Of a stretch of DNA of 64,000 bases, positions 27,473 through 50,826 are shown piece by piece. Positions within the stretch are counted from its first letter, which is position 1. Every line of letters starts with the position of its first letter. Position numbers and translations under genes: made by a program. The notes below the pieces were generated by a model. The model was not told where the DNA came from. It did no database searches and saw only the letters and a program-made list of their open reading frames with translations. Origin of the DNA: Spirochaetia bacterium (GTDB lineage: Bacteria > Spirochaetota > Spirochaetia > SP-2023); assembly GCA_965225855.1 (NCBI GenBank), contig CBDDCK010000005.1, forward strand, positions 736,001 through 800,000, written 5' to 3'.

Positions 27473-27853
27473 ATGTCCATAGAATATAAAGTTGTTGAAC
27501 GCGCAAACCCGCAAGATAGGCAAAGTAAAAAGTATTATGCTTCGGCCAATGTTACTGGGGAGACCAGTACCAAAGATTTGTGTAAAGATATAGAACAAAT
27601 GAGCACGGTAAACGGAGCCGATGTGCAGGCGGTGCTGTATGCTTTATCCGAGGTGATTCCCCGCCATTTGGCCGATGGCAAAAGCGTACGCTTGGGCGAC
27701 TTGGGTAGTTTTCGTATTACCATACGCAGTAAGGGCGAAGAGGCTGAAAAAGATGTCGATGTCCACAGCATTACCGATGCTCGTATTACCTTTAACCCAA
27801 ACCGTGAGTTTTCTGCTATTACAAAAAATTTGCACTACAAGAAAATCAAATAG
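27473..27853 (+). CDS. HU-family (Bacteroidetes-type histone-like) DNA-binding protein
   Basis: MSIEYKVVERANP...KYYA...STVNGADVQAVL...LADGKSVRLGDLGSF...ITFNP. Confidence 0.85.
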   Translation: MSIEYKVVERANPQDRQSKKYYASANVTGETSTKDLCKDIEQMSTVNGADVQAVLYALSEVIPRHLADGKSVRLGDLGSFRITIRSKGEEAEKDVDVHSITDARITFNPNREFSAITKNLHYKKIK

Positions 27854-27919
27854 GTATACAGTAAGTGGTTAGCAATGGGTTTTACGCTAGAGAACCGTTG
27901 CTAAAGGCTTAGCCTGCTT

Positions 27920-30484
27920 GTGAGTAAACCTATGGATAAAAAAACTCTCTACAATACTTATGAAGCTTTAGAGGAGGCACAAGGCCATGAGGCTTTGTAT
28001 CGTCCAGTTGAATCTTGCCTAAAACAAGCCGAGCAAAGCCTAAAGCACCAATTGCGCCCCTACCAACAAAAAGCCCTACAGCGGTTTTTCCATTACGAAA
28101 CCGAGTATAAAAACAAGCACAACAATAACCATCTGCTGTTTGAAATGGCTACCGGCACCGGTAAAACACTTATTATGGCCGCCTTGCTACCGTATTTTTA
28201 CCAACGCGGTTACACCACTTTTATATTTTTCGTCAACAGTACGGCCATTGTCGAAAAAACCAAGCAAAACTTTTGCGACAGTGCTTCTAGCAAATATTTA
28301 TTTGCCCAGCCATTGGTTATAGACGGCGAGCGCATAGAGGTACAAGCCGTACCAAATATTGACGAAGCCCACGACAAGTGCATAAACATTATCTTTACCA
28401 CCATTCAGGGCTTGCATATGCAAATGCAAAACCCTAAGGAAAATACCACCACCTTAGAAGATTTTGCTGATCGCAAAGTAGTATTGCTAGCCGATGAAGC
28501 CCACCACAACAGCACCAATACGAAAGCTAAAGCCAAAGAATTATTGCGTTCTTGGGAAGATACGGTACAGGATATTTACCAGCAAAATAAGGAAAACTAC
28601 CTACTGGAATTTAGTGCCACGGCCGAGCTCAATAAAAAGGAAGTCGAACAAAAATACCATGATAAGGTAATTATACGCTATGGCTTAAAAGAGTTTCGCC
28701 AAGAGGGCTATTCTAAAAATATCTATTTGGCGATCACCAAAACAGAGTCTATAGCAGAACGATTATTGCTGGCAGCAGTTATTAGCCAGTATCGCCAAGA
28801 GTTGGCTGCCCAACATGACCTAAGCATAAAACCAGTATTGTTGTTTATTTCTAAGACAATTAAAGAGAGTAAGGAAGCAGAACAAACATTCCACAATTTA
28901 ATCGAGCACATGGATGAAAGCGATATAGAGAATATTTTTACCCTAGTGCAAAAATACCAAGACATAGATTTATACTGCAAAATGCATGACTTTTTTCACA
29001 AAGAAAATTTTGCCTACAGCCATTTGGCACGGCGTTTAGCAGCCAACTTTTCTAAAGAAAGGTGCATCAATGTCAATGATGATAAAGCTCTGGAAGCAAT
29101 GCAAGTGCACTTAAATACACTGGAAGATAGTAGCAACCCCTATAGAGCGATCTTTGCCGTCAATAAATTAAATGAAGGTTGGGACGTGCTGAACTTGTAC
29201 GATATAGTCAAATTGTACGAAACCAAAAAGCAGAAAGGCAAGCCACCAACCACCCAAGAAGTGCAGCTAATTGGGCGCGGAGCGCGGCTATATCCGTTTG
29301 TGCTAGAAGAGGGGCAAGAAAAGTATAAGCGCAAATACGATGATGATAGCGACCATACACTTGGTATTTTAGAACAGCTACACTTTCATACGGCCGATGG
29401 TTCGGCTTTTATTGACCAGCTCAATAAAGACTTGGACGATGCGGGGTTATTCGATAGCGATAAAAAACAGCACGAAATACGCTTAAAACAATCTTTTATC
29501 GATTCGGAATTATATAAAGAAGGCCATTTTTATACCAATAAACAACACAAGAGCGAGCCCAAAAATTGGCTGCAATATAACTTGTTTGGCGAGATAGAAA
29601 CCCGTTCTTTAGAAGGGCTTAGCGGGTACTACAGTATTGATGTACGCCTAGATATAATGGATATAGACCAACAAGCCACTGCGGAAGTGCTGGAAAATAC
29701 CAAAGCATTAACGCTTAGCCTAAAGGATATTCCCGATAGAATCTTTTTAAAAGCGGTTGCCTCAAACCAGTATTACCGCTTCGAGCCGTTTAGCCGTAAG
29801 CTGGCCATAGATACCATAGTAAAAATCAAAGAGCGATTAAAGCAACATAAGCTAACGATTGCCTATCCAGAAAACTATCGCAAAGCGGAAGTTATGGCCA
29901 TGATGCGCCCATTGCGGAAAGTTTGCGCAAACTTTTTAGCCAATTTACAAGCAAAGATAGAAAATGAATGGAGCGATTTTATTGGCACGAAAGAGCTAAT
30001 TGAACAGCCCATAAAAAAAGTGTTTCAGCACAAAAAGATATTTTTGAATAAGCAAGAAACCATGCTTCCTTGCCAACAATGGCCTTATTTTGCCCAAGAG
30101 CAAGTAAAAGTAAATAACGATGAAGAGCAATGTATAAAAGATGTGCACCAGTTATTACAAGAAGCCAAGCTGCCTATCCGGTGGCTGCTGCGCAATGAAC
30201 GCCAGTTTAAGATATATAACTTTGCCGATGGCCGAGGCTTTGAGCCAGACTTTTTGCTAATGCTGGAAAATAACCATAAAACTATATACCAGATATTTAT
30301 AGAACCCAAAGGCGAGTTTTTGCAGGACTATGACCGCTGGAAAGAACAGCTTATGCAGGATTTTGCCCAGCTAGAAACGCCCGAAAGCCTATACCAAATT
30401 ATTGCGCTGCCATTCTACAACCCAAAAAATAAAACCGAGTTTATGGCTATGTTGGAACAGCGTATCAATAGCTTGCAAACTTAG
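27920..30484 (+). CDS. res: Type III restriction-modification Res subunit (SF2 helicase + PD-(D/E)xK nuclease)
   Basis: MATGTGKT, DEAHH, SAT, LNEGWDV, QLIGRGAR and C-terminal FEPDF...IEPKG; appears intact. Confidence 0.9.
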   Translation: MSKPMDKKTLYNTYEALEEAQGHEALYRPVESCLKQAEQSLKHQLRPYQQKALQRFFHYETEYKNKHNNNHLLFEMATGTGKTLIMAALLPYFYQRGYTTFIFFVNSTAIVEKTKQNFCDSASSKYLFAQPLVIDGERIEVQAVPNIDEAHDKCINIIFTTIQGLHMQMQNPKENTTTLEDFADRKVVLLADEAHHNSTNTKAKAKELLRSWEDTVQDIYQQNKENYLLEFSATAELNKKEVEQKYHDKVIIRYGLKEFRQEGYSKNIYLAITKTESIAERLLLAAVISQYRQELAAQHDLSIKPVLLFISKTIKESKEAEQTFHNLIEHMDESDIENIFTLVQKYQDIDLYCKMHDFFHKENFAYSHLARRLAANFSKERCINVNDDKALEAMQVHLNTLEDSSNPYRAIFAVNKLNEGWDVLNLYDIVKLYETKKQKGKPPTTQEVQLIGRGARLYPFVLEEGQEKYKRKYDDDSDHTLGILEQLHFHTADGSAFIDQLNKDLDDAGLFDSDKKQHEIRLKQSFIDSELYKEGHFYTNKQHKSEPKNWLQYNLFGEIETRSLEGLSGYYSIDVRLDIMDIDQQATAEVLENTKALTLSLKDIPDRIFLKAVASNQYYRFEPFSRKLAIDTIVKIKERLKQHKLTIAYPENYRKAEVMAMMRPLRKVCANFLANLQAKIENEWSDFIGTKELIEQPIKKVFQHKKIFLNKQETMLPCQQWPYFAQEQVKVNNDEEQCIKDVHQLLQEAKLPIRWLLRNERQFKIYNFADGRGFEPDFLLMLENNHKTIYQIFIEPKGEFLQDYDRWKEQLMQDFAQLETPESLYQIIALPFYNPKNKTEFMAMLEQRINSLQT

Positions 30485-30530
30485 TTTGTGGGCTAGGGCC
30501 TTATTAGTTTATGGGCTAGGGCCTTAGGGA

Positions 30531-30716
30531 ATGAACGGTAGAGAACTAATAAAACTGTTAGAACAAAACGGCTGGCAGTTAGTCCGCATAAAAGGTTCGC
30601 ACCATGTAATGAAGAAGGAAGGGATAGAGAGACAAGTATCTGTTCCGGTTCATAAAGGAAAAGATATTCCCAAAGGTACTTGTAAACAAATATTGAAAAA
30701 AGCAGGATTAAAGTAG
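30531..30716 (+). CDS. hicA: HicA-family toxin (copy 1)
   Basis: 61 aa; RIKGSHH and VPVH motifs. Confidence 0.92.
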   Translation: MNGRELIKLLEQNGWQLVRIKGSHHVMKKEGIERQVSVPVHKGKDIPKGTCKQILKKAGLK

Positions 30717-30737
30717 AATTAAAGTAAGGATAAAAGA

Positions 30738-31166
30738 ATGGTTATTATTCACTATATCGCCAATCTAAAGTACGACAGACAAACAGATATGTACGAGATT
30801 GAAATTCCAGAAATAGAAGGATGTTATACTTGCTCTCCTCCGTCTTATGAACAAGCAGCCCAGATGGGTAAAGAAATTTTAAGCATTGTCTTGGCCGAGT
30901 GTCTTGAAATAGGTGAAATTATTCCGCGGCCTAAGAATAATAAGCCTACAGAATCGCAAATAGCGATTCGCCCCGAGCCGGATATTGCCTTGGCGTTATG
31001 GTTGCGTTGGCAGCGCGAAGACCGCCAGCTTAGCCAGGAACAAATGGCCAAGCAGTGCGAGCTGGATATGAACACCTATCAACGTTTAGAATCTGCCAAT
31101 GAGCCGGCGATGAAGATACTAACTAAACTCGAGCACGGTTTGGGTGAGAATATTTTCGCTCTATAA
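30738..31166 (+). CDS. hicB: HicB-family antitoxin with XRE-type HTH (copy 1)
   Basis: Y.IEIPEIEGCYT N-terminal domain; LSQEQMAK...YQRLE HTH; follows hicA. Confidence 0.88.
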   Translation: MVIIHYIANLKYDRQTDMYEIEIPEIEGCYTCSPPSYEQAAQMGKEILSIVLAECLEIGEIIPRPKNNKPTESQIAIRPEPDIALALWLRWQREDRQLSQEQMAKQCELDMNTYQRLESANEPAMKILTKLEHGLGENIFAL

Positions 31167-31255
31167 TGAAGCCTTGGCAATTATTAAAAATAGTGTATAC
31201 ATGAAGTCTATCAACCAATTGCAAACTTAGTTTGTACGGCTTGGGGCCTTACGCA

Positions 31256-31438
31256 GTGAGCGGTAGAGAAATAATAAAACTTTTGGAACAAAACGGCTGG
31301 CAGTTAGACCGCATCAAGGGCTCGCACCATGTAATGAACAAGGAAGGAGAAAGGTCTATTGCCGTTCCAGTTCATGGAAATAAAGATTTAAAGACCGGTA
31401 TTGTTCAGCAAATAATGAAGGACGGAGGTTTGAAATGA
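31256..31438 (+). CDS. hicA: HicA-family toxin (copy 2)
   Basis: GTG start aligns with copy 1; RIKGSHH and VPVHG motifs. Confidence 0.9.
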   Translation: MSGREIIKLLEQNGWQLDRIKGSHHVMNKEGERSIAVPVHGNKDLKTGIVQQIMKDGGLK

Positions 31439-31869
31439 AAGAGATTTACTACATTGCCCATATTGATTATGAAGACGAAACAGATATGTATGGGGTTGTA
31501 TTTCCAGAAATACAAGGTTGCTATACTTGCGCACCTTCTACTATTGAAAGGGCAGTAGAGATGGCAAAGGAAGTTTTAAGTATTGTTTTAGAAGAGCAGC
31601 TTAAAAATGGAGATGCTATTGTTAGGCCTAGCAAGGCCATGATTACGCAGACAGAATCGCAAATAGCGATTCGCCCCGAGCCGGATATTGCCTTGGCGTT
31701 GTGGTTGCGCTGGCAGCGCGAAGACCGCCAGCTTAGCCAGGAACAAATGGCCAAGCAGTGTGCGCTGGATATGAGCACCTATCAACGTTTAGAATCTGCC
31801 AATGAGCCGGCGATGAAGATACTAAGCAAACTCGAGCACGGTTTGGGTGAGCATGTTTTCACTCTATAG
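31435..31869 (+). CDS. hicB: HicB-family antitoxin with XRE-type HTH (copy 2)
   Basis: YGVVFPEIQGCYT; HTH almost identical to copy 1; ATGA overlap with hicA2. Confidence 0.88.
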   Translation: MKEIYYIAHIDYEDETDMYGVVFPEIQGCYTCAPSTIERAVEMAKEVLSIVLEEQLKNGDAIVRPSKAMITQTESQIAIRPEPDIALALWLRWQREDRQLSQEQMAKQCALDMSTYQRLESANEPAMKILSKLEHGLGEHVFTL

Positions 31870-31877
31870 TGGGGTTT

Positions 31878-32050
31878 GGGCGTTCACGGTGGTAAAAATT
31901 GCAAAACCCTTATAAAATGCTTGTTAAAATCTTACTTACATAATATCAAAAAGCATATAATGCAGAGTAAGGCACATTTTATAAACCAATAAAATAGAAG
32001 AGGTGTGGTATGAATTATGCTATTTGGAACAATAAAGGCGGGGTAGGCAA
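31878..32050 (+). repeat. About 130-bp leader (copy 1) plus first parA codons; second copy at about 38886-39020
   Basis: ttcacggtgg...caaaacccttataaaatgctt...aaaatctta..tacataatatcaaaaagcatataa...agagtaa.gcacatttta is shared with 38891-39000. Confidence 0.85.
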
Positions 32051-33041
32051 GTCTTTTTTAACGTTTGTGTTGGCCACAGAATACGCCAAAGCGCACCCCA
32101 AACAACAAGTATGTGTGATAGACATGTGCCCGCAGGCCAATGTGAGCGAAATACTTTTAGGTGGCAACGGCAAGGGCCATAAAAATATCTCTAGCTTTCT
32201 TTCTAGCACGGACAATAGAGGAAGAACAACCATCGGAGGGTATTTGGACAAAAGATTATCCCAGCCCGATAGCAAGACTGGCAATGAATCCCATTATGCC
32301 ATAGCGATAAAAAAAGATTTTGCAATAAGTAACATTCCCAACAATCTTTTATTGGTTTGTGGCGATCCTTCGTTGGAGCTGCAAGTACAGTCTATTAATC
32401 AAATAGCTTCGGTAGATTTGCCGGAAGGCCGATGGGGCAATGTGCATCACTGGATTCAAGACCTTATCGATGGAATCTCTAGCAATTACGACAACAATGT
32501 GGTTTATTTTATAGATTGTAACCCCAGTTTTGCCACCTACACAGCCCAAGCGGTATTGGCAGCCCAAAGGTTGATCGTACCGTGTACTGCCGATGGAGCT
32601 TCGGCGCGGGCTATAGACAACATTGGCCAATTATTATATGGCGTTGGGGTGTCGCAACTGTATGCCAAAACCAATTTTTGCGCCAAAGCCAAGGAAAACC
32701 ATTTGGAAATTCCTAAAATACACCTTGTTTTGCTCAATAGATACACTACCAGTAGCAATGCCCCCAGTAAAGCATTTGAAGCTATGTACAAAGAAGTAAG
32801 GAATAGAGTCTCTACATTTACTGGCAAAGATATTTTACTGAACAATGATACAGAGAGAACTTGCCAAGAGATACCCGATGCCCACGCGGTAGCGATAACT
32901 TCTTCGGAGTTAGCAATTCCTATTTCAGAATTAACGGCTAAAGCATATCCATTACAACACGGCCAAACACAGATTAACCAAGCACCGCTAGAACGCTATC
33001 AAAAGGCCATCAATAAGATACTTCCATTATTATTGCAATAG
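32010..33041 (+). CDS. Orphan ParA/Soj-family ATPase
   Basis: Deviant Walker A NNKGGVGKS, IDMCPQAN, IDCNPS; no parB adjacent. Confidence 0.88.
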   Translation: MNYAIWNNKGGVGKSFLTFVLATEYAKAHPKQQVCVIDMCPQANVSEILLGGNGKGHKNISSFLSSTDNRGRTTIGGYLDKRLSQPDSKTGNESHYAIAIKKDFAISNIPNNLLLVCGDPSLELQVQSINQIASVDLPEGRWGNVHHWIQDLIDGISSNYDNNVVYFIDCNPSFATYTAQAVLAAQRLIVPCTADGASARAIDNIGQLLYGVGVSQLYAKTNFCAKAKENHLEIPKIHLVLLNRYTTSSNAPSKAFEAMYKEVRNRVSTFTGKDILLNNDTERTCQEIPDAHAVAITSSELAIPISELTAKAYPLQHGQTQINQAPLERYQKAINKILPLLLQ

Positions 33042-33059
33042 TTTGGCTACCCCCCAAAA

Positions 33060-33208
33060 GCGCCCCGGCTAAATACGGGGAGAGCTTAGGCTAAATACGG
33101 GAAGAGCTTTAGACAAATACGGGGAGAGCTTCGGCTAAATACGGGAATAAGTTTGACGCAATACGCAAATAAATTATCGTTATACAGTATAAACAAATAG
33201 GAGAAACT
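33060..33208 (+). repeat. 22-bp-period array 1 (5 units, core AATACG) plus promoter/RBS leader of mod1
   Basis: AATACG at 33072, 33094, 33116, 33138, 33160. The last unit carries TTGACG-N16-TATCGT, then AGGAG. Confidence 0.9.
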
Positions 33209-35095
33209 ATGAAGACCCCACCCCTAAGCCTAGAATACCTAAAGAATTTACTACAAGCCCAGCCGCACTACCTAGACCAAGAGGGCGAGCTAAACACGGC
33301 TTTATTGTATAAGCTAGCCCAGCAGTGCCAGCGCAATTTGCTGGAATTGTTGTTTGCCGATACGGCTGCGCGCAAGGCGTTTTTCTTGGAACAAGGCGGG
33401 GTTACGGTATTTGTGCGCGACCATTTTATCGACTACATACAGCACAAACGCTTTGTGGCCAATAGCTACACCGCCTATCGTAACAAAATTGGCTTGCACG
33501 ATGAGCACGACTATCTAAAGAAAAGCCAAGATGTGGTGCTGGCCTTTCCGTTTAAAGACTGCGTACTGGAAGGTGGCCAAACTAAAGACGATGCCAAGCG
33601 CAGCGAACGCTACTACCACCGCATACTGGCGATAGAACAACTTGACCGCTTGCTGGACCCCAAAGTGCTAACTAACGCGCGCCGCTATACTAAGGAGGGC
33701 CCAAGCGAATGTAGGGAATTTACCCGCAAACCAAGCGACCATACCATTAGCGATAATTTGATTATTAAAGGCAACAATTTAATTGCGTTGCATACCATCA
33801 AGGAACAGTTTGCCAAAAAAGTACAGCTGATCTACATCGACCCACCGTATAACACCGGCAACGATAGCTTTTTGTATAACGACAACTTTAACCACAGCAC
33901 TTGGTTGGTATTTATGAAAAATCGCCTAGAAGCAGCGCGCGAACTGCTGCGAGACGATGGCGTGATTTTTGTTCAGTGTGATGACAACGAACAGGCTTAT
34001 TTGAAGGTACTCATGGACGAAGTCTTTGGACGGGAGAATTTTGTTGCTAGTTTAGTTTATAAAAGAAGAAAAACCCAAGCAAATCTAACTAAGTGGATTG
34101 CTCCTATACATGAATATATTTTAGGATTTGCGAAGAGTAAAAATAGTTTATCAATAAATAGAATACCTTTGCGACAAGAGTATGTGAAAGAAATGTATAA
34201 GAATCCTGATAATGATTCCCGTGGTTTATGGAGAACGAAACCGTTAGCATCGCCTGATAACTCACCTAACAAAGAGTTTGAATTAGATTTAAGAAACGGC
34301 AGAAAAATTAAAGCAAAATGGAGAGTTTCCCAAAAGACTTATGATCAATACTTAAAAGATAATTTAGTCGTTATCCCTAGAGGCGGGGAAGGAATGCCTA
34401 ATGCAAAAGTTTTTTTGAAAGATAATGAAGGGCAAATACCTAATACTCTTTTAATTGATGTTGCAACGAATGAACAAGGCAGTAAAGAAATAGAACTTAT
34501 TTTTGGCTCTAATAGTGCTTTTGCCTATCCCAAGCCGGAAGGGCTGTTACAAAGGATTATCGAGATTGCCACTAAGCAAGGCGACCTAGTGCTAGACTTT
34601 TGTTTGGGCAGCGGAACTACTGCGGCGGTTGCCCACAAAATGGGCAGGCAATATATCGGCATTGAACAAATGGACTATATACAAACTATTGCGGTAGAGC
34701 GCCTTACCAAAGTTATTGCCGGCGAACAGGGCGGCATCAGCAAAAATGTAGCTTGGCAAGGCGGTGGCAGCTTTGTCTATTTAGAGCTGAAAGCGCACAA
34801 CCAAACTTTTATAGGGCGTATTACCGAGGCCACCACCCAAGCGCAAATGGCGCAAATACAGCAAGAGTTACTCAAAAACCCAGATTTGGACTACCGCCTA
34901 AACACCCAAGAGGTACGGCAGAGCGCCGAAGATTTTGCCGCGCTAAGCCTAGACGATCAAAGGCAAGCGCTTATTGACTTTTTGGAACTAAACCAATTAT
35001 ATGTGCCGTATACCGAGCGCAAAGACACGCGCTTTAATTGCACAGACAAAGAAATTAACCTAAGCGAAAGTTTTTACAAGGGAGAAAAATCATGA
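33209..35095 (+). CDS. mod: Type III R-M Mod subunit 1 (beta-class adenine MTase)
   Basis: NLIIKGNNL, IYIDPPYNTG, YPKPEGLL, LDFCLGSGTT, GIEQMDY. Confidence 0.9.
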   Translation: MKTPPLSLEYLKNLLQAQPHYLDQEGELNTALLYKLAQQCQRNLLELLFADTAARKAFFLEQGGVTVFVRDHFIDYIQHKRFVANSYTAYRNKIGLHDEHDYLKKSQDVVLAFPFKDCVLEGGQTKDDAKRSERYYHRILAIEQLDRLLDPKVLTNARRYTKEGPSECREFTRKPSDHTISDNLIIKGNNLIALHTIKEQFAKKVQLIYIDPPYNTGNDSFLYNDNFNHSTWLVFMKNRLEAARELLRDDGVIFVQCDDNEQAYLKVLMDEVFGRENFVASLVYKRRKTQANLTKWIAPIHEYILGFAKSKNSLSINRIPLRQEYVKEMYKNPDNDSRGLWRTKPLASPDNSPNKEFELDLRNGRKIKAKWRVSQKTYDQYLKDNLVVIPRGGEGMPNAKVFLKDNEGQIPNTLLIDVATNEQGSKEIELIFGSNSAFAYPKPEGLLQRIIEIATKQGDLVLDFCLGSGTTAAVAHKMGRQYIGIEQMDYIQTIAVERLTKVIAGEQGGISKNVAWQGGGSFVYLELKAHNQTFIGRITEATTQAQMAQIQQELLKNPDLDYRLNTQEVRQSAEDFAALSLDDQRQALIDFLELNQLYVPYTERKDTRFNCTDKEINLSESFYKGEKS

Positions 35096-37790: not shown

Positions 37791-37797
37791 CTTGCGG

Positions 37798-40780: not shown

Positions 40781-40789
40781 CATACAGGC

Positions 40790-40941: not shown

Positions 40942-41109
40942 ATGAAAAGCCAATCCCTAAGCCTAGAATCCTTAAAAGCTTTGCTAAAGGCACAACACCA
41001 CTACCTAGACCAAGAAGGCGAGCTAAACACAGCTTTGCTGCATAAGCTAGCCCAACAGTGTGAGCACAATTTGCTGGAATTGTTATGGGCAGACAAAATT
41101 ATTGGATAA
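40942..41109 (+). pseudogene. 5' remnant of a mod gene (55 codons)
   Basis: MKSQSLSLESLKALLKAQHHYLDQEGELNTALLHKLAQQCEHNLLELLWAD... matches the Mod N-terminus, then stops. Confidence 0.9.
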
Positions 41110-41126
41110 AGAGAGTTTGATTTTTT

Positions 41127-41294
41127 ATGAATAAACCTAGTAAAGAGACTAAATTTAAAACGGTTATCGAGAGAAATACCTTTTATTTTTACAACAAGAT
41201 ATTTGAAGAAAAATATGAAGGATATTTAAATTCTCTAAAAGAAACTTTAGTGATTCTAAAATATAAAATAGAAGAGGTTTTTTCTGGAAAATAA
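41127..41294 (+). pseudogene. Short AT-rich ORF, possibly an internally deleted type II restriction endonuclease gene
   Basis: MNKPSKETKFKTVIERNTFYFYNKIFEEKYEGYLNSLKETLVILKYKIEEVFSGK resembles, from memory, N-termini of DpnII-family REases; ends 5 nt before the MTase. Confidence 0.45.
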
Positions 41295-41299
41295 GTTTT

Positions 41300-42287: not shown

Positions 42288-42462
42288 CAAACCACCCCGG
42301 CTAAATACGCAAAGCGCCCCGGCTAAATACGCTTAGAGCTTGGGCTAAATACGGGAAGAGCCCGCCTTAAATACGGGAATAACTTTGGTTAAATACGGGA
42401 ATAAGTTTGACGCAATACGCAAATAAATTATAGTTATACAGTATAAACAAATAGGAGAAACC
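42288..42462 (+). repeat. 22-bp-period array 4 (6 units) plus promoter/RBS leader of mod2
   Basis: AATACG at 42304, 42326, 42348, 42370, 42392, 42414; TTGACG-N16-TATAGT. Confidence 0.9.
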
Positions 42463-44409
42463 ATGAAGACCCCAGCCCTAAGCCTAGAATCCTTAAAAAC
42501 TTTGCTACAAGCCCAGCCGCACTATGTAGACCCAGAAGGCGAGCTCAACACGGCTTTATTGTATAAGCTAGCCCAGCAGTGCCAGCGCAATTTGCTAGAA
42601 TTGTTGTTTGCGGACACGGCCGCGCGCAAGGCGTTTTTCTTGCAGCAGGGCGGGGTTACGGTGTTTGTGCGCGACCATTTTATCGACTACATACAGCACA
42701 AACGCTTTGTAGCCAACAGCTACACCGCCTATAAAAACAAAATCGGCTTGCACGATGAGCACGACTATCTAAAGAAAAGCCAAGATATTGTGCTGGCCTT
42801 TCCGTTTAAAGACTGCGTACTGGAGGGTGGCCAAACTAAAGACGATGCCAAACGCAGCGAACGCTACTACCACCGCATACTGGCGATAGAGGAACTTGAC
42901 CGCTTGCTGGACCCCAAAGTGCTAACTAACGCGCGCCGCTACACTAAGGAGGGCCTAAGCGAATGTAGGGAATTTACCCGCAGCCCAAGCAATAATACCA
43001 TTAGCGACAATTTGATTATCAAGGGCAACAACCTTATCGCCTTGCACAGCATCAAGGAACAATTTGCCAAAAAAGTAAAGCTGATCTATATCGACCCGCC
43101 ATATAATCCTCAAAGCCCCAATAATACTTTTTGCTACAATAATAATTTTAACCGTTCTACTTGGTTAGTGTTTATGAAAAATCGCTTGGAAGTAGCCAAG
43201 CAATTATTGACAGAAGACGGAGCGATAATTATTGCCATTGATGACAATGAAAGGGATTATTTGGGCGTTTTGTTAAGAGAATTATTTCATGAAGACCAAC
43301 ACGAAACCCATTGTATTACCATTGTGCACAACCCTCGTGGGGTACAAGGCACAAATTTTTCTTATACCCATGAATACGCATTCTTTGTAATACCCAAAGG
43401 AAAAAAGACTATTATAAACCAAAAAATAGCAGCAGAAAATATTACTTTTAGAGGTTTACGAGACAATGGCGGTATAAGTTTAAGAAGTGATGCTAAGAAT
43501 TGTTTTTATCCGATTATAGTAGATAAACAGAGCAAGCAAGTTATTGGCTTTGGGGCAGTCTGTGAAGATAGCTTTTCTCCCAAAGCGCGCATGATAGAAC
43601 ATGCCGATACGTATGCTATTTATCCGGTAGATGATGGCGGCGTAGAACGCAAATGGCGGTATGCCTATCAATCGGTAGCCAAAGTAAAGCACTTGTTGCG
43701 TGCTAGAGAAGTAAAAGGTATATGGGATATTCAAATAGGCAAAGACTTTCGCCAATACCCAACGGTATGGCAAAATACCAAATATGATGCCAATGAATAC
43801 GGCACGAAACTGATTAAATCTTTAGTGCCCAATGCCAGCTTTGACTTTCCCAAATCTTTATGGACTGTGTACGACTGCCTCTATGCTGTTGTCGGAGAAG
43901 ATAAAAATGCGATTGTTTTAGATTATCATGCGGGTAGTGGCACAACCGCACACGCTGTATTGGAATTAAATAAACAAGACAACGGCAATCGGCAATTTAT
44001 ACTTTGTGAACAAATGGACTATATAGAAAATGTAACCAGTCAAAGAATCCAAGCTGTATTAAAGCAAGAAAATATAGATAACAGCTTTGTCTATTTGGAG
44101 CTAAAACAGCACAACCAAGGCTTTATACAGCGTATTACCGAGGCCACCACCCAAGCGCAACTTAGCGCAATACAGCAAGAGTTACTGCAAAACCCCGATT
44201 TGGACTACCGCCTGAATACCGAAGCCGTGCAACAAAGCACCGAAGATTTTGCTGCGCTAAGCCTAGACAATCAAAGGCAAATATTGATAGACTTTTTGGA
44301 ACTCAACCAATTGTATGTGCCGTATAGCGAGCGCAAAGATACGCGCTTTCATTGCACGGACCAAGAAATACCACTAAGCGAAAGTTTTTACAACGGAGGC
44401 CAAGCATGA
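42463..44409 (+). CDS. mod: Type III R-M Mod subunit 2
   Basis: IYIDPPYN, FPKS, LDYHAGSGTT; termini nearly identical to mod1, centre unrelated. Confidence 0.9.
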   Translation: MKTPALSLESLKTLLQAQPHYVDPEGELNTALLYKLAQQCQRNLLELLFADTAARKAFFLQQGGVTVFVRDHFIDYIQHKRFVANSYTAYKNKIGLHDEHDYLKKSQDIVLAFPFKDCVLEGGQTKDDAKRSERYYHRILAIEELDRLLDPKVLTNARRYTKEGLSECREFTRSPSNNTISDNLIIKGNNLIALHSIKEQFAKKVKLIYIDPPYNPQSPNNTFCYNNNFNRSTWLVFMKNRLEVAKQLLTEDGAIIIAIDDNERDYLGVLLRELFHEDQHETHCITIVHNPRGVQGTNFSYTHEYAFFVIPKGKKTIINQKIAAENITFRGLRDNGGISLRSDAKNCFYPIIVDKQSKQVIGFGAVCEDSFSPKARMIEHADTYAIYPVDDGGVERKWRYAYQSVAKVKHLLRAREVKGIWDIQIGKDFRQYPTVWQNTKYDANEYGTKLIKSLVPNASFDFPKSLWTVYDCLYAVVGEDKNAIVLDYHAGSGTTAHAVLELNKQDNGNRQFILCEQMDYIENVTSQRIQAVLKQENIDNSFVYLELKQHNQGFIQRITEATTQAQLSAIQQELLQNPDLDYRLNTEAVQQSTEDFAALSLDNQRQILIDFLELNQLYVPYSERKDTRFHCTDQEIPLSESFYNGGQA

Positions 44410-45506
44410 ATAACCGTGAAATAGAACAGTATACAAGGATTATTGACGACCCCAATTCTACCAATGAACAGAAGGCGGAGGTGTATATAGATAGGGGGCT
44501 TACTTATGCTATACAAGGGGAATTTGTAAAAGCGATAGCGGATTTTACAGAGGCTATAGGGCTAGCAACAGATAATGAAACGAAAGCAAATGTATATTTA
44601 GACAGAGGGCTTACTTACAGCAAACAAGGAAAATACCAGCAAGCGATAGCCGACTTTAACCAAGCCATTGAGTTAGCAACAGATAATGAAACGAAAGCAA
44701 AGGTTTATAACAACAGAGGAGCTATTTACAGCGAACAAGGAGAATACCAGCTAGCGCTAGCGGATTTTACCCAGGCCATTAAGCGATATACGGATAATAA
44801 CGACAAAGCCAATGCGTATATCAACAGAGGCGTTGCTTATGATGAACAAGAAAAATATCCAGAGGCCATAGCCGACTATAAAAATGCCTTAAACTTAAAC
44901 CCAAAACTTAAAGAAGCAAGAATAAATCTAGCTATAGCCGAAGTAAAAGAAAAACAAGCAAAATTTGACCGTTTATCTGGGGAGGCTCGCAGTTTTGGGT
45001 TGGCAAAAGAATATCAAGAGGAACAAGATAAACTAAACAAATATGTGAAGAAATGTACAAAATGGTTTATAGTAGGAATAGGAGCGCTAATCGTTGTAGT
45101 CTTATTGCAGATTACAGTAGGAATATTATCACTATTTGGTGTAACTTTCTGGCGGATCGATTGGAGTAAGATTTCTTTTAGTCTTACGACTATACTCACT
45201 ACCTTGCCTTTGCTTGCCCCCATAATATGGCTTACCAGTTTCTTTGCCAAACGCAGGAGCGAGGCCAATATGCTTTTGCAAGAATATAGCCACAAAACCA
45301 TATTTGCCAAATCGTATATTGCCTATAAACAGGAAATAGAAAAGCTAGAAAGCCCAGACTCGAACCTACAGCCCAAGTTATTAGAAGCAATGATAGAGAC
45401 ACTAAAACGCAGCCCGACAACTATTTTTAGCAAAAAACACTCCAGCGACTTACCGATTGAAGAGCTAAAGCAAATAATCGAGCTTGCCAAAACACTAAAA
45501 AGTTAG
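44406..45506 (+). CDS. TPR protein (4 repeats) with coiled-coil and 2-TM C-terminal domain
   Basis: Start at ATG 44406 (ATGA overlap with mod2); 37-aa TPRs; hydrophobic WFIVGIGALIVVVLL and LPLLAPIIWLTSFF; EYSHKTIFAKSY tail. Confidence 0.85.
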   Translation: MNNREIEQYTRIIDDPNSTNEQKAEVYIDRGLTYAIQGEFVKAIADFTEAIGLATDNETKANVYLDRGLTYSKQGKYQQAIADFNQAIELATDNETKAKVYNNRGAIYSEQGEYQLALADFTQAIKRYTDNNDKANAYINRGVAYDEQEKYPEAIADYKNALNLNPKLKEARINLAIAEVKEKQAKFDRLSGEARSFGLAKEYQEEQDKLNKYVKKCTKWFIVGIGALIVVVLLQITVGILSLFGVTFWRIDWSKISFSLTTILTTLPLLAPIIWLTSFFAKRRSEANMLLQEYSHKTIFAKSYIAYKQEIEKLESPDSNLQPKLLEAMIETLKRSPTTIFSKKHSSDLPIEELKQIIELAKTLKS

Positions 45507-45521
45507 CGTTGCCTTTCAAGA

Positions 45522-45694
45522 AATAGCCTGCCCTAAATACGCTTAGAGCTTGGGCTAAATACGGTCAGAGCCTGCCCTAAATACGGGAAGAGCTTGGGCT
45601 AAATACGGGGAGAGCCCGCCCTAAATACGGGGAGAGCTTGGCCACTGTAGGCAAATAAATTATAGTTATACAGTATAAACAAATGGGAGAAATC
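45522..45694 (+). repeat. 22-bp-period array 5 (5 units + 1 degenerate) plus leader of mod3
   Basis: AATACG at 45536, 45558, 45580, 45602, 45624. Confidence 0.9.
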
Positions 45695-47668
45695 ATGAAA
45701 ACCCCACCCCTAAGCCTAGAATCCTTAAAAGCTTTGCTACAAGCCCAGCCGCACTATGTAGACCCAGAAGGTGAACTGAACACGGCTTTATTGCACCAGC
45801 TAGCGCAGCAGTGCCAGCGCAATTTGCTGGAATTATTGTTTGATAATAGCGCTACCCGGCAGGCGTTCTTTTTTGAGCACGAAGGGCACAGCGTATTTGT
45901 GCGCGACCATTTTATCGACTACATACAGCACAAACGCTTTGTGGCCAATAGCTACACCGCCTATCGTAATAAAATTGGCTTGCACGATGGCCAAGACTAC
46001 CTAAAGAAAAACAAGGATATTGTACTGGCCTTTCCATTTAAAGACTGCGTTTTGGAAGGCGGTCAAAGCAAAAGCGAGGCCAAACGCAGCGAACGCTACT
46101 ACCACCGCATACTGGCGATAGAGGAACTTGACCGCTTGCTGGAGCCCAAAGTGCTGTGCAACGCGCGCCGCTACACTAAGGAGGGCCCAAGCGAATGTAG
46201 GGACTTTACCCGCAATAACAGCAATAATACCATTAGCGACAATTTGATTATCAAGGGCAACAATTTAATTGCCTTGCACAGCATCAACGAACAATTTGCC
46301 AAAAAAGTAAAGCTGATCTATATCGACCCGCCGTACAACACCGGCAACGATAGCTTTTTGTACAACGACAATTTTAACCATTCTACTTGGCTAGTATTTA
46401 TCAAAAACCGTCTGGAAATAGCGCGCAAGCTATTGCGAGGGGACGGGGTGATTTTTGTGCAGTGTGATGATAACGAAATGGCTTATTTAAAGGTGTTGAT
46501 GGACGAAGTCTTTGGACGGGAGAATTTTGTCAGTACCATCACCACAAGAGCAACGCCGAATGCCAGAGACTATGGATTGATTGCGCAAATGCATGAATTT
46601 ATTTTGTTTTATGCAAACGATGTTGTTCGAGCAAATACCAATTTAATCGATATGGAGGACAACCATCAGAAAGGCTTTTGTTATACAGACCAAAAAGGAG
46701 AATTTAATATCCATCCTCTGTATAACAGTAATGTCAATTTTCATATTGACAATAGACCAAACTTATTTTACCCATTCTACCTAAATACTCATAAAACAGA
46801 TCAAAACGGCTTCTTTGAAATTTCTTTGGAAAAACAAAGTGGTTGTATCGAAATTTACCCACCAAAATCCCAAAAGGATAGTGTTCAGTTGGTCTGGCGA
46901 TGGGGCAAAGAAAAATCTTTAGCAAATATTAACAAAGAAATTGTCGGTTATCAAACAAGACAAGGTCTATTTAGAATTGTGCAAAAAATGCGTGGAGATA
47001 AACAGCTTGCTAGAACTATATGGTTTGATACAAGTATTTCGAATAGAAGAGCTACAGAAGATTTACAAAAGCTGTTTGCGGAAAAAGTCTTTGCCTATCC
47101 CAAGCCGGAAGGGCTGTTACAAAGAATTATCGAGATTGCCACTAAGGAAGGCGACCTAGTTTTGGACTTTTGTTTGGGCAGCGGCACGACTGCGGCGGTG
47201 GCCCACAAAATGGGCCGGCAATATATCGGCATAGAACAAATGGACTATATACAAACTATTGCGGTAGAGCGCCTTGCCAAAGTAATTGCCGGCGAGCAGG
47301 GCGGTATCAGCAAAAATGTGGGCTGGGCCGGCGGTGGCAGCTTTGTCTATTTGGAGCTGAAAGCACACAACCAAGCTTTTATACAGCGTATTACCGAGGC
47401 CAGCAGCCAAGCGCAACTTAGCGAAATCCAGCAAGAGTTACTACAAAACCTCGATTTGGACTACCGCCTAAATACCGAAGCCGTGCAACAAAGCGCCGAA
47501 GATTTTGCCGCGCTAAGCCTAGAAAAGCAAAGGCAAATATTGATAGACTTTTTGGAACTCAACCAATTATATGTGCCGTATAGCGAGCGCAAAGACACCC
47601 GCTTTAGCTGCACACAACAAGAAATACCACTAAGCGAAAGTTTTTACAACGGAGGAAACCATGAATAA
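45695..47668 (+). CDS. mod: Type III R-M Mod subunit 3
   Basis: IYIDPPYNTG, YPKPEGLL, LDFCLGSGTT; distinct TRD; start ATG 45695 by alignment with the other copies. Confidence 0.9.
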   Translation: MKTPPLSLESLKALLQAQPHYVDPEGELNTALLHQLAQQCQRNLLELLFDNSATRQAFFFEHEGHSVFVRDHFIDYIQHKRFVANSYTAYRNKIGLHDGQDYLKKNKDIVLAFPFKDCVLEGGQSKSEAKRSERYYHRILAIEELDRLLEPKVLCNARRYTKEGPSECRDFTRNNSNNTISDNLIIKGNNLIALHSINEQFAKKVKLIYIDPPYNTGNDSFLYNDNFNHSTWLVFIKNRLEIARKLLRGDGVIFVQCDDNEMAYLKVLMDEVFGRENFVSTITTRATPNARDYGLIAQMHEFILFYANDVVRANTNLIDMEDNHQKGFCYTDQKGEFNIHPLYNSNVNFHIDNRPNLFYPFYLNTHKTDQNGFFEISLEKQSGCIEIYPPKSQKDSVQLVWRWGKEKSLANINKEIVGYQTRQGLFRIVQKMRGDKQLARTIWFDTSISNRRATEDLQKLFAEKVFAYPKPEGLLQRIIEIATKEGDLVLDFCLGSGTTAAVAHKMGRQYIGIEQMDYIQTIAVERLAKVIAGEQGGISKNVGWAGGGSFVYLELKAHNQAFIQRITEASSQAQLSEIQQELLQNLDLDYRLNTEAVQQSAEDFAALSLEKQRQILIDFLELNQLYVPYSERKDTRFSCTQQEIPLSESFYNGGNHE

Positions 47669-48737
47669 CCGTGACATAGAACGATACACAGAGATTATTG
47701 AAAACTCGAATTTTTCAGATAAAGAGAGGGTAAAAGCGTATAACAACAGAGGCAATGCTTACAGGAGACAAAAAGAATATGAGCCCGCAATAGCGGATTT
47801 TATAGAGGCTATTGCGTTAGCAACAGATAATGAAACAAAAGCAATTGCGTATTTCAACAGAAGCTTTGCGTACTTTCAGCAAAAGAAATACGAGCTAGCG
47901 ATAAAGGACTTTACGCAAACCATTGATTTATTTACATATAGTAACCAAATGATACAGCGAGTGTTAAGAGAAGCTAAGACAAACTTTGATAATCGAGATT
48001 ATAGTGAAGCGATAGAAAAATATCAAAATATAATTCCTTCCTTAAAAGAGAATGAGGTTGGGAAAAAAGCGTATCAAGGGAGAAGTGATTCATATTTAAA
48101 ATTGGGAAAGCATAATGAGTCGATAGCCGATCATAAAAAGGCCATAGACTTAGATAGGCAATTAGAATCAGCAAAACTTTATTTGTGCCTTGCAGAAACA
48201 AAAAAGGCAGTAGAAGAAAGCAATAAGGTAAAAGAGGAATTTCAAAGCTTATATGGAGATGCCGGCAGTATTGGGCTGGCAACAGGATATGAAAAGCAAC
48301 AAGATAAACTAAATAAATATGTGAAGAAATGTACGATATGGTTTATAGTAGGAATAGGAGCGCTAATCGCTGTAGCTTTATGGCAGATATTTTGCAATAA
48401 GGATTCTTTTAGTCTTACTACTATACTCACCGCCTTGCCTTTGCTTGCCCCCATAATATGGCTTACCAGTTTCTTTGCCAAACGCAGGAGCGAGGCCAAT
48501 ATGCTTTTGCAAGAATATAGCCACAAAACCATATTTGCCAAATCTTATAGTGCTTATAAACAGGAAATAGAAAACCTAAAAAGCCCAGACTTGAACCTAC
48601 AGCCCAAGCTATTAGCAGCAATGATAGACACCATAAAACACAGCCCGAAAACTATTTTTAGCAAAAAACACTCCAGCGACTTACCGATTGAAGAGCTAAA
48701 GCAAATAATCGAGCTTGCTAAAACATTAAAAAGTTAG
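47661..48737 (+). CDS. TPR protein (about 4 repeats) with coiled-coil and 2-TM C-terminal domain
   Basis: Overlaps the mod3 stop by 8 nt; 3' half nearly identical to 44406-45506. Confidence 0.85.
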   Translation: MNNRDIERYTEIIENSNFSDKERVKAYNNRGNAYRRQKEYEPAIADFIEAIALATDNETKAIAYFNRSFAYFQQKKYELAIKDFTQTIDLFTYSNQMIQRVLREAKTNFDNRDYSEAIEKYQNIIPSLKENEVGKKAYQGRSDSYLKLGKHNESIADHKKAIDLDRQLESAKLYLCLAETKKAVEESNKVKEEFQSLYGDAGSIGLATGYEKQQDKLNKYVKKCTIWFIVGIGALIAVALWQIFCNKDSFSLTTILTALPLLAPIIWLTSFFAKRRSEANMLLQEYSHKTIFAKSYSAYKQEIENLKSPDLNLQPKLLAAMIDTIKHSPKTIFSKKHSSDLPIEELKQIIELAKTLKS

Positions 48738-48774
48738 CGTTGTCTTTCAAGAAATAGCCCGGGCGATTCAGGCC

Positions 48775-48969
48775 AAGCGCCCCGGCTAAATACGGGAAGC
48801 GCCCGCCTTAAATACGGGGAGAGCCGAAGCTAAATACGGGAAGCGCCCGCCCTAAATACGCTTAGAGCTTGGGCTAAATACGGGAAGAGCCCGCCCTAAA
48901 TACGCTTAGAGCTTGGCCACTGTAGATAAATTGATTATGATTATACACTATAACTAAATAGGAGAAACC
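48775..48969 (+). repeat. 22-bp-period array 6 (6 units) plus leader
   Basis: AATACG at 48789, 48811, 48833, 48855, 48877, 48899; ends in aaataggagaaacc. Confidence 0.9.
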
Positions 48970-49137
48970 ATGAAGACCCCACCCCTAAGCCTAGAAAGTC
49001 AAAAGAAAATACTTGTCGGCTTTTGGGAACTCAATCAATTATATGTTCCCTACACCGAACGCAAGGACACGCGCTTTAACTGCACGGACCAAGAAATTAC
49101 CCTAAGCGAGAATTTTTGTATGGGAGGCCAAGCATGA
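48970..49137 (+). pseudogene. Mini-mod: in-frame fusion of the first about 9 and last about 46 codons of a mod gene
   Basis: MKTPPLSLE-SQKKILVGFWELNQLYVPYTERKDTRFNCTDQEITLSENFCMGGQA*. Confidence 0.9.
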
Positions 49138-50552
49138 GCAACAAAGAAATAGAACGGTACACACAAATTATTGAAACCCCAATTCTACCAATGAAGAGAG
49201 GGCGGTGGCGTATGGTGGTAAAGGGATTACTTATTTTCAACAAAAAGAATACGAGCCCGCCATAGCCGACTTTAACCAAGCCATTGAGTTATTTACAGAT
49301 AATAACGACAAAGCAATAGCTTATACCAACAGAGGCAATGCTTATAAAGAACAAAAAGAATACGAGCCCGCCATAGCGGACTTTAACCAAGCCATTGAGT
49401 TATTTACAGATAACAACGACAAAGCAATAGCTTATACCAACAGAGGCGCTGCGTACTTTGAACAAGGAGAATACCAGCTAGCAATAGCGGATTTTACCCA
49501 GGCCATTGGGCTAGCTGTAGATAATAACCTTAAAGCAATGGCATATATTGACAAAGGAACTGCTTACGAACAACAAGAACAATACGAGCCCGCCATAGCG
49601 GACTTTACCCAAGCCATTCATTTATACAGAGATAACAACGAAAAAGCAAAGGCTTATAACGGCAGAGGCCTTACTTATGGGAAACAAGAACAATACGAGC
49701 CCGCCATAGCGGACTACACACAGGCCATTGAGCGATATATGGATAATAACTTTAAAGCAAAGGCCTATAACAACAGAGGCTATGCTTACGGAGAACAAGA
49801 AAAATACCAACAAGCGATAGCGGACTACACACAGGCCATTGGCTTATTTACAGACAATAACGACAAAGCAAAGGCCTATAATAACAGAGGCTATGCTTAC
49901 GGAGAACAAGAAAAATACCAACAAGCGATAGCGGACTACACACAGGCCATTGGCTTATTTACAGACAATAACGACAAAGCAAAGGCCTATAACAACAGAG
50001 GCTATGCTTACGGAGAACAAAAAGAATACGAGCTAGCGATAGCGGACTTTACCCAAGCCATTCATTTATACAGAGATAACAACGACAAAGCAAAGGCCTA
50101 TAATAACAGAGGCCTTACTTATGGGAAACAAGAAAAATATGATAATGAAGGAAATAAAGAAGAATCTTAAAATAATTAAGAGAAAAAGAGCCGAATGTAT
50201 ACCCAAAAAGTTTAGAGTTACTAAGCGGTTTGCACTATTTGATAAAAGATGCCAGCTATGCCTACGAACAAGAATACCGTTTCGTGTGTTTTGCCAGCAC
50301 AGAACATATGCCCGAGATATTACAAAGAGAAAACCAGACCAAGAGCCAAAAGATACCCAAGACCATAGCTGCTCTCGTATTTATGTAGAAACCGATATAC
50401 TAGAAAAGTTATCCGCGGTGCTAACGGCCCCGAAAATAGAAAAGGCAAAAGTCCTAGATATACAGTATTTTTTGCATTGGTATACAAAGTCGGGCCAATT
50501 CTCCAAACAAGAACAATTGCCTGTATATACAAGCCGTATTCCGTACCGCTAG
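49134..50552 (+). pseudogene. Decayed TPR (about 8.5 repeats) + DUF2971-like 3' fragment
   Basis: ATG 49134 (MSNKEIERYTQII) frameshifts near 49175. TPRs run to about 50140, then join a frameshifted copy of roughly 37340-37790. Confidence 0.85.
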
Positions 50553-50826
50553 CTTGCCGCCCGGCCCGGCCTGCACTTGACTGCACGCAAAAAATATATA
50601 CACAACAACTCAAGAAATTCCCCTAGGCAAAGCGTTTTACTGCCAAGCTCCTAAGTTTTGAATACTTAAAAGATTGACTAAAGACAAAGTCCCTTGTTCA
50701 ATTTAGTTTTTTGCTGCTGCATATAAACCTTGTATAAATACGAAACTATTGATATATTCAAGCCGTTATAATTCTTTTACTTTTTTGATCTTTGTACTTT
50801 TTTGAACCATTTTAAGGAGTTTATCT

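Follow-up and report, generated by a model that had tools for sequence, protein, structure and literature searches.

The DNA analysed here, a 64,000-nt stretch of the genome of a Spirochaetia bacterium (assembly GCA_965225855.1, contig CBDDCK010000005.1, positions 736,001-800,000 of the forward strand; hereafter the window), contains a 23-kb defence island made up of one type III restriction gene (res) and a same-strand row of repeat-headed units in which a type III methyltransferase gene (mod) is followed by a gene for a tetratricopeptide repeat (TPR) protein. The repeated unit has the order array, leader, mod, TPR gene, effector. Gene identities were assigned with Pfam and PADLOC, 23 open reading frames (ORFs) being scanned at 22.9-54.3 kb; arrays with a period of 22 bp were located with Tandem Repeats Finder, and internal repeats with a self dot-plot. 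The assembly is 2.71 Mb in size, and the window and a second mod-TPR locus (locus 2) both lie on its 2.03-Mb contig (C5). The res gene and the units of the island are the following, in window positions:

27920..30484, + strand: type III Res, intact and full length (Pfam ResIII; PADLOC REase_III, E 4.7e-120, residues 38-852)
33067..33208, + strand: array 1 (22-bp units) and leader with promoter-like hexamers and ribosome-binding site (RBS) (tandem repeats, motif)
33209..35095, + strand: mod1, intact type III methyltransferase (Pfam N6_N4_Mtase and TypeIII_RM_meth; PADLOC MTase_III, E 4e-186)
35092..36636, + strand: TPR1, 13 TPR units with a 111-bp period, the ATG overlapping the mod1 stop (ATGA) (Pfam, repeats)
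36633..37790, + strand: DUF2971 protein, the start overlapping the TPR1 stop (Pfam PF11185, 30.2 bits against a cutoff of 22)
40797..41109, + strand: array 2, leader and 55-codon N-terminal mod stub (40942-41109) (repeats, dot-plot)
42295..42462, + strand: array 3 and leader (repeats, motif)
42463..44409, + strand: mod2, intact; it diverges most of all copies and has a recognition domain of its own (Pfam, PADLOC, alignment A1)
44406..45506, + strand: TPR2, four TPR units and, C-terminal to them, a predicted membrane-effector domain with two hydrophobic helices (Pfam)
45525..45694, + strand: array 4 and leader (repeats, motif)
45695..47668, + strand: mod3, intact, with its own recognition domain (Pfam, PADLOC, alignment A1)
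47661..48737, + strand: TPR3, with a membrane-type C-terminal domain as in TPR2 (44962-45721 against 48238-48996, 79%)
48784..48969, + strand: array 5 and leader (repeats, motif)
48970..49137, + strand: mod stub, the first 10 codons fused in frame to the last ~45, the interior deleted (alignment)
49134..50170, + strand: TPR4, likely pseudogene, with a 1-nt frameshift between the coupled ATG (49134) and the repeat body
50198..50570, + strand: remnant of a DUF2971 gene 3' end (ORF 50121-50552), right edge of the island (87% to 37426-37808)

An earlier, sequence-only reading of this DNA had described one type III res followed by five such units. The five arrays, their leaders and the mod starts at 33209, 40942, 42463, 45695 and 48970 were recovered where it had placed them (Tandem Repeats Finder, sequence inspection); the single intact res was borne out by a full-length PADLOC match and by the one copy of its family in the genome, and the starts at 40942 and 48970 do head remnants (a 55-codon N-terminal piece and a 10 + ~45-codon in-frame fusion, respectively). 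Four overlapping TPR genes had been claimed; those at 35092, 44406 and 47661 and the coupled ATG at 49134 are there, but TPR4 is frameshifted. What that reading had overlooked is a degenerate array at ~37805-37890, the genome-wide distribution of the repeat, locus 2, the effector domains and the DUF2971 remnant.

A second bank of mod-TPR units

Locus 2 lies at C5:110700-132150 on the minus strand, 650 kb from the island, and comprises five array-leader-mod-start units (identified with Pfam and PADLOC), with four intact mods:

Minus strand: mod, TPR gene and DUF2971 gene
Minus strand, unit B: 9-codon mod stub, then a 1273-aa TPR protein, intact and PDC-S31-like at its end
Minus strand: mod, then a 610-aa TPR-PDC-S31 protein
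Minus strand: mod, then a 795-aa TPR protein with the membrane domain
Minus strand: mod, then an 833-aa TPR-DUF2971 fusion

The 1273-aa protein of unit B contains ~26 near-identical repeats.

Seven methyltransferases and one Res

The only match to the Res family in the whole genome was that at 27920-30484. The protein has the features of an SF2 helicase-like ATPase and of a C-terminal PD-(D/E)xK nuclease; along its whole length it shares 35% identity with the Res of genome G022, the GTGKT, DEAHH and PD...EPK motifs being aligned, and it is 56% identical to that of genome G116. Intact mods of the family number seven in the window's genome: the window has three and locus 2 the other four. Their alignment (A1, n = 7) showed the N-terminal ~290 and C-terminal ~180 residues to be conserved and the centres to be unalignable, the DPPY and GSGTT motifs being invariant; DPPY and FxGxG are kept in all seven. 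Since mod1 and the first mod of locus 2 share a recognition domain (94% aa identity) while the others all differ, the seven mods represent six recognition domains. The persistence of intact frames and catalytic motifs in seven mods at 3-29% nucleotide divergence argues for purifying selection, as judged from the sequences. Simple sequence repeats (homopolymers of at least 8, dinucleotides of at least 5 copies, tetra- to heptanucleotides of at least 3-4 copies) were found in none of the seven mods, and phase variation of these genes was rejected on that ground.

Relatives of the mod family were sought in metagenomes (79 loci, the mods at most 48% identical) and in 401 genomes of the class. A res gene lies downstream of mod in 71 of the 79 metagenome loci (within 150 nt in 54), none was seen in five, and three end too soon to show a downstream gene; two full-size mods precede one res in three loci, and none of the 79 has a TPR gene after mod. 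The usual type III operon, with one res directly after one mod, was not found here, where there are seven mods to one res and the mods are followed by a TPR gene. In genomes G022, G116, G154, G145, G248 and G060 a res of 862-928 aa comes after mod, and a close mod match was present in 14 of the 401 class genomes. Since window-type mods match their Res-partnered relatives through residues 623-627 of 628, the Mods appear to have retained the architecture of Res-type partners. The ancestral state was mod-res, since the relatives' mods are mostly succeeded by res, and the TPR gene here sits in the place of res.

G071 belongs to another family of the class; two overlapping tandem mods there are directly preceded by a TPR-DUF2971 gene of 964 aa (C1:1323937-1340629), and the matching res is 7 kb downstream, behind metabolic genes. 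The three congeners lack the mod family (best matches, 36-38% identical), and a genome-collection scan with the mod alignment returned 70 pattern hits, none of which was confirmed. The genes flanking the island, Prx-Grx and aldose-epimerase, are ~0.44-0.55 Mb apart in congeners G002 and G003; in G001 the aldose-epimerase match is clear, and a partial Prx-Grx match (52%, residues 22-164) lies ~0.94 Mb away. Because of these distances, comparison with the congeners yields no empty site.

TPR genes and their predicted effector domains

A TPR gene follows the mod, or the mod stub, in nine of the ten units of the two loci. Its start overlaps the mod stop by ATGA or by 8 nt, and its RBS lies inside the 3' end of mod. 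Three kinds of effector were distinguished. The first, a DUF2971 domain, is either part of the TPR protein or the product of a coupled gene of its own; the second is a PDC-S31-like domain related to it; and the third is a C-terminal domain with two long hydrophobic helices, which is present in TPR2, TPR3 and one locus 2 protein. An assignment of the last of these, in TPR2 and TPR3, to DUF6161 came from a weak protein-atlas lead (0.90) and was dropped when Pfam did not confirm it.

PF11185 matches were also obtained for the locus 2 copies and the G071 fusions. The YANDPTEG, WxxYGD and ExEYR positions are invariant in 15 relatives, as are Y157 and E288/E290. An AlphaFold model of the DUF2971 protein (predicted local distance difference test score, pLDDT, 70.7; predicted template modelling score, pTM, 0.77) found its best fold matches in DarT structures (7yk3_C, Z 6.5; 7omv, Z 6.4; 7omu, 5.6; 8baq, 5.3), Tpt1 scoring 5.6; the DarT match aligned 148 residues at a root-mean-square deviation of ~4 Å. 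These modest but coherent indications point to a predicted DarT-like ADP-ribosyltransferase effector. DUF2971 has been grouped with DarT-type ADP-ribosyltransferases (PMC12522546), and Aristaios, described as a lone DUF2971 protein, protects Lactococcus from phage (PMC11381338). The domain is common to these proteins, with Y and ExE positions conserved, and DarT (PDB 7yk3, 7omv) is the best, though modest, fold match; here, in contrast, long TPR arrays are fused to the domain or encoded by a coupled gene, downstream of a type III mod, and no DarG-like antitoxin is present.

The clade is rare: 12 other proteins were found at E <= 1e-5 in a set of 5.8 billion proteins, five of them with TPR domains. 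It occurs in four of the 401 class genomes, and in the 401-genome phylum sample it was seen in the window's own genome only. In five of the six loci of TPR-DUF2971 gene family f43, no mod adjoins.

Recombination and age of the copies

The self dot-plot bore out the common mod ends and unrelated centres: the 5' parts are 83-87% identical, the centres are unrelated, and the 3' parts are 79-82% identical, this similarity continuing into the TPR genes. Identity is distributed as a mosaic. In mod2 (42463), nt 1-420 are 93% identical to mod1, nt 421-840 only 71-78% identical to all others, and the last 270 nt 91% identical to mod3 (45695); among three locus 2 mods, the likeness is 93-97% in nt 1-420 but 84-88% in nt 421-840. 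Exact tracts of up to 220 bp are common to units, and tracts of at least 50 bp are shared by most pairs of intact units. The mod interior has been lost in two units (48970 and locus 2 B), the leader, first codons and coupled 3' end being kept. Comparison of unit 1 with the right end of the island showed the homology to stop exactly where, in unit 1, an array begins; upstream genes end 17-78 bp before an array, and units and cargo blocks start directly after arrays.

Because of the mosaic identity, the exact tracts, the interior deletions and the stop of homology at the array edge, recombination between the common parts has shaped the locus. The mosaic indicates segmental gene conversion, and the pattern as a whole fits duplication, deletion and segmental gene conversion, both inside each bank and from one bank to the other. 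The copies are old: between paralogues, identity reaches only 71-97% across the conserved blocks of mod, and it is 71-88% where the alignment runs from locus to locus and takes in the TPR and DUF2971 genes as well; nothing in the sequences shows rapid switching or ongoing cassette exchange. The proposal of the sequence-only reading, an accordion-like platform recombining at shared arrays and mod termini, therefore stands as far as recombination between common parts is concerned (mosaic mods, exact tracts) and is not supported as regards the arrays as a dedicated platform and rapid exchange. In Helicobacter pylori, a like process is reported for the movement of recognition domains from one type III mod gene to another (Furuta and Kobayashi 2012, PMC3467074).

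The 22-bp arrays and the leader

The period-22 arrays of the window lie at 33067-33154, 40797-40898, 42295-42426, 45525-45641 and 48784-48916. Their core motif, CTAAATACGSNNAGMGC, occurs in 21 copies in the window, all on the + strand, where 0.02 would be expected. Every array is followed by a conserved leader of ~55 nt, which contains a -35/-10-like pair of sigma-70-like hexamers (e.g. TTGACG-16-TATAGT), the inverted repeat TTATAC-A-GTATAA and then AGGAGAAACC; the mod ATGs at 33209, 40942, 42463, 45695 and 48970 come after these leaders. An RNA fold of the array region was not significant (z -0.73), and a structured-RNA role for the arrays was rejected. The repeat can also be described by the core CTAAATACGGGAAGAGC, with the near-palindrome AGCCnGGCT between cores, and about two thirds of the arrays lie within defence loci.

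Throughout the 2.71-Mb assembly, ~30 arrays with at least two units were counted among those listed, a figure which, like the contexts that follow, is a lower bound. Ten of these head mod units of the family and one is a remnant before a TIR gene; further type III loci, equipped with res genes of their own, account for four (C5 533, 535, 538 and 1810 kb), another four flank AAA_15/AAA_13 genes and a pair of 1285-aa type IIG-like genes, two are at the end of a TIR-TPR gene, and nine are beside housekeeping-type genes or unknowns, these neighbours including ornithine decarboxylase, malic enzyme, alanine dehydrogenase, Dus and solute-binding protein genes. No copy of the repeat was found in the three congeners or in G071. 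The arrays are thus a young, species-wide intergenic repeat that is enriched in defence loci, and not a cassette signature; they are not specific to the mod-TPR platform, because they occupy ~30 sites among those listed, some of them by housekeeping genes.

Several of the arrays outside the window have noteworthy surroundings. Examples are found at C5:1231262-1231607 (16 units), C4:208120-208201 and C5:292493-292618. At C5:1999940-2000060, a third array remnant with a leader-like sequence and a mod-like start codon context adjoins an ApaLI-type restriction–modification (R-M) pair and a pair formed by a beta-eliminating lyase and an SNF symporter gene; an equivalent lyase-symporter pair comes after the tandem mods of G071. 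Three mods of another type III family (EcoP15I-like C-terminal domain), each array-headed, lie at C5:528001-546000 and C5:1800001-1818000; two are accompanied by res genes of their own (979 and 971 aa), and the third is followed by a gene for a 1243-aa protein without a Pfam match. Two paralogous genes for 1285/1286-aa fused methylase-specificity (type IIG-like) proteins (C5:1004454-1008311 and C5:1145209-1149069) are each followed by a 22-bp array with an identical ~100-bp flank, with AAA_15 and AAA_13 ATPase genes between further arrays. A 758-aa TIR-TPR gene (C5:81274-83892) ends in two 5-unit arrays 240 bp apart, its frame entering the first.

Other genes of the island

The genes between and around the units are the following:

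27473..27853, + strand: HU-family DNA-binding protein (HU-HIG), first gene of the island (Pfam PF18291, E 4.9e-35; NCBIfam TIGR01201)
30504..31871, + strand: two paralogous HicB-like/HTH modules, ORFs 30738-31166 and 31435-31869 (Pfam HicB_lk_antitox and HTH_3)
32010..33041, + strand: ParA/MinD-like P-loop ATPase (Pfam AAA_31/CbiA)
37805..37890 (approx.), + strand: degenerate sixth 22-bp array, heading the TIR cassette (core motif and homology)
37966-38379, + strand: ThsB-like TIR protein (Pfam PF08937, E 3e-17; PADLOC ThsB)
38381-38851, + strand: 8xMP membrane protein (Pfam PF24838, E 7e-34)
39080..40780, + strand: GmrSD-type (HEC-06/Orf5) type IV restriction enzyme (Pfam GmrSD_N and GmrSD_C; PADLOC HEC-06, E 1.3e-160)
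41110..42217, + strand: low-GC insert with a beta-class N6/N4 DNA methyltransferase (41300-42217) (composition; Pfam, PADLOC MTase_II)

The cargo named in the sequence-only reading (DUF2971, TIR plus membrane protein, GmrSD and an orphan methyltransferase, here N6_N4) was confirmed with Pfam and PADLOC, and its statement that no integrase, invertase or transposase is present agrees with the absence of such Pfam domains from the 23 ORFs scanned. The HicB-like/HTH modules form a direct repeat (30504-31168 against 31227-31871, 76% in the self dot-plot). A second type of common cassette head, without a 22-bp array, consists of 140 bp before the ParA-like and GmrSD genes (31883-32022 against 38892-39030, 82%). 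The ThsB-like TIR protein is shared with Thoeris; here, however, no PADLOC model for ThsA (SIR2/SLOG or Macro) matched, and the partner is the 8xMP membrane protein, on which literature searches returned nothing relevant. The methyltransferase insert (41110-42217) has a GC content of 0.325, against ~0.40 in its surroundings, and no nuclease adjoins it. A copy ~94% alike, with 817 extra letters before the gene, was found in the same sample on a 7-kb contig whose depth is about ten times as high, which suggests that the insert may be linked to another, more abundant replicon.

Assembly and related populations

Short-read contigs from the likely source sample reproduced 31796-33120, 37797-40817, 43057-44159, 47626-48367 and 50373-51400 and beyond without a difference, at depths of 4.7-11.3 against 7.7 for the flank. 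They connect the ParA-like gene with array 1, the array before the TIR gene, through GmrSD, with array 2, and the flank with the DUF2971 remnant.

In runs of another study, an organism (B) yielded pieces 85-99% alike to the island. In one contig of run X4, a 5' part resembling mod1 and a 3' part resembling mod3 are linked by 477 unrelated letters, the joint mapping to window 33758-34044 / 47098-47242; in the same run, part of the mod3 centre (46644-47124) is 99% alike, and most other pieces are 85-95% alike. As a lead, related populations may thus hold different recognition domains. Other joints at 85% likeness, in runs X1, X4 and X5, were not counted as variants, as they may be locus 2 paralogues or come from other organisms. 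Run X6, although labelled with the same species, gave no matching pieces, which is not taken to mean that the locus is absent there.

Interpretation of the locus

The reading to which we give about even chances is that of an expanded type III specificity bank which shares one Res in trans, is fused with TPR-effector abortive-infection modules, and has been shaped by homologous recombination. Each Mod dimer would methylate the host genome at its own specificity and recruit the common Res, which would cut unmodified DNA, so that several specificities would operate simultaneously. The TPR-effector proteins would provide a second, suicide-type layer, either sensing phage proteins themselves or watching the Mod proteins. 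The bank would have expanded via tandem and inter-locus duplication, deletion and segmental conversion across the common leader and mod ends, the 22-bp arrays bounding the units as possible break points and not as a dedicated cassette site. The TPR-effector part would be separable from mod, because five of the six f43 loci have none and because lone Aristaios is protective. Several observations weigh against this reading. The res gene lies 2.7 kb upstream of the nearest mod, with four genes between, and is in an operon with no mod, while locus 2 is without any res; because of this uncoupling and absence, use of Res in trans is something that we infer. The strict mod-TPR pairing (nine of ten units, translationally coupled) would go unexplained if both were independent, and the coupling, which is derived because no TPR gene follows mod in the 79 related loci, may signal a new function. 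The match of the DUF2971 model to the DarT fold is modest (Z 6.5, pLDDT 70.7). Finally, the short contigs break at every repeat, and the order of the units is not confirmed by them.

In the main rival reading, Mod, TPR protein and effector would form a self-contained, Res-independent defence, the TPR protein docking on the Mod dimer in place of Res and a Mod that meets unmethylated foreign DNA releasing the effector; res would then be a leftover or serve mod1 only. We consider this unlikely, although several observations speak for it: in nine of ten units the TPR gene occupies the relatives' res position, overlapping mod and with its RBS within it, locus 2 has four intact mods and no res, and the G071 TPR-DUF2971 gene abuts two tandem mods with res 7 kb off. 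Yet five of the six f43 TPR-DUF2971 loci have no adjoining mod, the 1273-aa TPR-effector of locus 2 unit B is intact despite a 9-codon mod stub, the Mods retain all the regions of their Res-partnered relatives, and a lone DUF2971 protein was enough for defence in Lactococcus (PMC11381338). Rather unlikely, too, is a new, type III-derived kind of immunity that depends on modification, in which a TPR adaptor has replaced Res and couples the reading of unmethylated DNA by Mod to a swappable effector (DarT-like DNA ADP-ribosyltransferase, PDC-S31-like or membrane-disrupting domain), the whole being multiplied into two banks with distinct specificities. That the extra mods might be orphan methyltransferases with an epigenetic or anti-restriction role, or slowly decaying duplicates, at most one Mod-Res pair restricting, seems to us distinctly unlikely: type III mods are well known as regulators (PMC5909438), res is uncoupled from every mod, three of ten units have broken mods and one TPR gene is frameshifted, but seven mods are intact with their catalytic motifs at 3-29% nucleotide divergence, the simple repeats typical of phase-variable regulators are in none of the seven, and Res is intact.

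A strong form of the accordion, with the 22-bp arrays as dedicated recombination sites for frequent gain, loss and swapping of cassettes, would explain why every unit and cargo block starts right behind an array while the preceding genes stop 17-78 bp short, why the right edge of the island is an array boundary in its paralogue, and why defence genes elsewhere (C5 532-538 kb and 1008-1014 kb) likewise have arrays at their borders. It is made improbable by the ~30 arrays among those listed genome-wide, some by housekeeping genes, by the lack of a recombinase among the island ORFs scanned and of a significant array fold (z -0.73), by the age of the paralogues (71-97% identity in mod blocks, 71-88% with TPR and DUF2971) and by the congeners, which are without the repeat, the mod family or synteny. 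As for the misassembly that the sequence-only reading had itself named as fatal to its proposal, strain alleles of one mod-TPR locus strung together in the assembly, we hold it to be highly improbable. Contigs of the source sample do break at each repeat, leaving the unit order unbridged, and other organisms are present in that sample; however, the recognition-domain pieces 43057-44159 and 47626-48367 and the cargo 37797-40817 were recovered exactly and at depths close to that of the flank, not at a fraction of it, which argues against an artefact, contigs bridge several joints of the island, including that from the DUF2971 remnant to the flank, and a second locus of the same design lies on the same 2.03-Mb contig.

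Relation to known systems

Tandem mods with one res have been published for Mycoplasma agalactiae 5632 (MAGa1570/1580; PMC9465063), so that in this respect the architecture, which the sequence-only reading did not recognise as described, is not new; the coupling of mod, TPR gene and effector was not found in the literature searches. Both systems have several mods with conserved 5' and 3' parts, variable central recognition domains and one res. Here, however, there are seven intact mods in two loci, res is upstream and uncoupled, the mods have no phase-variable repeats and are followed by TPR-effector genes, and the units are array-headed and interleaved with other defence genes. With H. pylori (PMC3467074) the island shares mosaic mods, a phylogeny of the recognition domains unlike that of the conserved parts, and recombination via conserved motif DNA, also between loci; there, every mod is paired with a res at a locus of its own, whereas here the mods are in tandem with common leaders and whole units are duplicated. 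The Mod architecture and the allelic pattern of recognition domains resemble those of the phasevarions ModA, ModM and ModS (Atack et al. 2018, PMC5909438), but none of the seven mods has simple repeats, and the alleles occur together in a single genome, where those of phasevarions alternate between strains. From an integron the locus differs in that its boundaries are 22-bp direct repeats without a significant fold and no recombinase is present among the 23 ORFs, IntI not having been searched genome-wide.

Type I systems with several hsdS genes, or shufflons, carry inverted repeats and usually a site-specific recombinase. The likeness is that one nuclease or motor would serve clustered specificity subunits with common blocks; the enzyme class is another, and here the repeats are direct, all on one strand, and no invertase was found. 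Neither the literature searches nor the 79 related loci yielded seven mods to one res in two banks, a res uncoupled from all mods, translationally coupled TPR-effector genes after every mod, or repeat-bounded units. One literature search directed at several mods served by a single res gave nothing relevant.

The 22-bp arrays, found at the borders of many defence genes, form a distinct, species-specific repeat family that is worth studying in its own right. If the seven Mods share one Res, the system would be the type III counterpart of the multi-hsdS type I systems, with six specificities in two recombining banks, and would open the tolerance of mixed Mod dimers and the building of a specificity repertoire to direct test. 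The coupling of mod, TPR gene and effector suggests either a guard layer over R-M or a new effector arm for a methylation-based self-mark.

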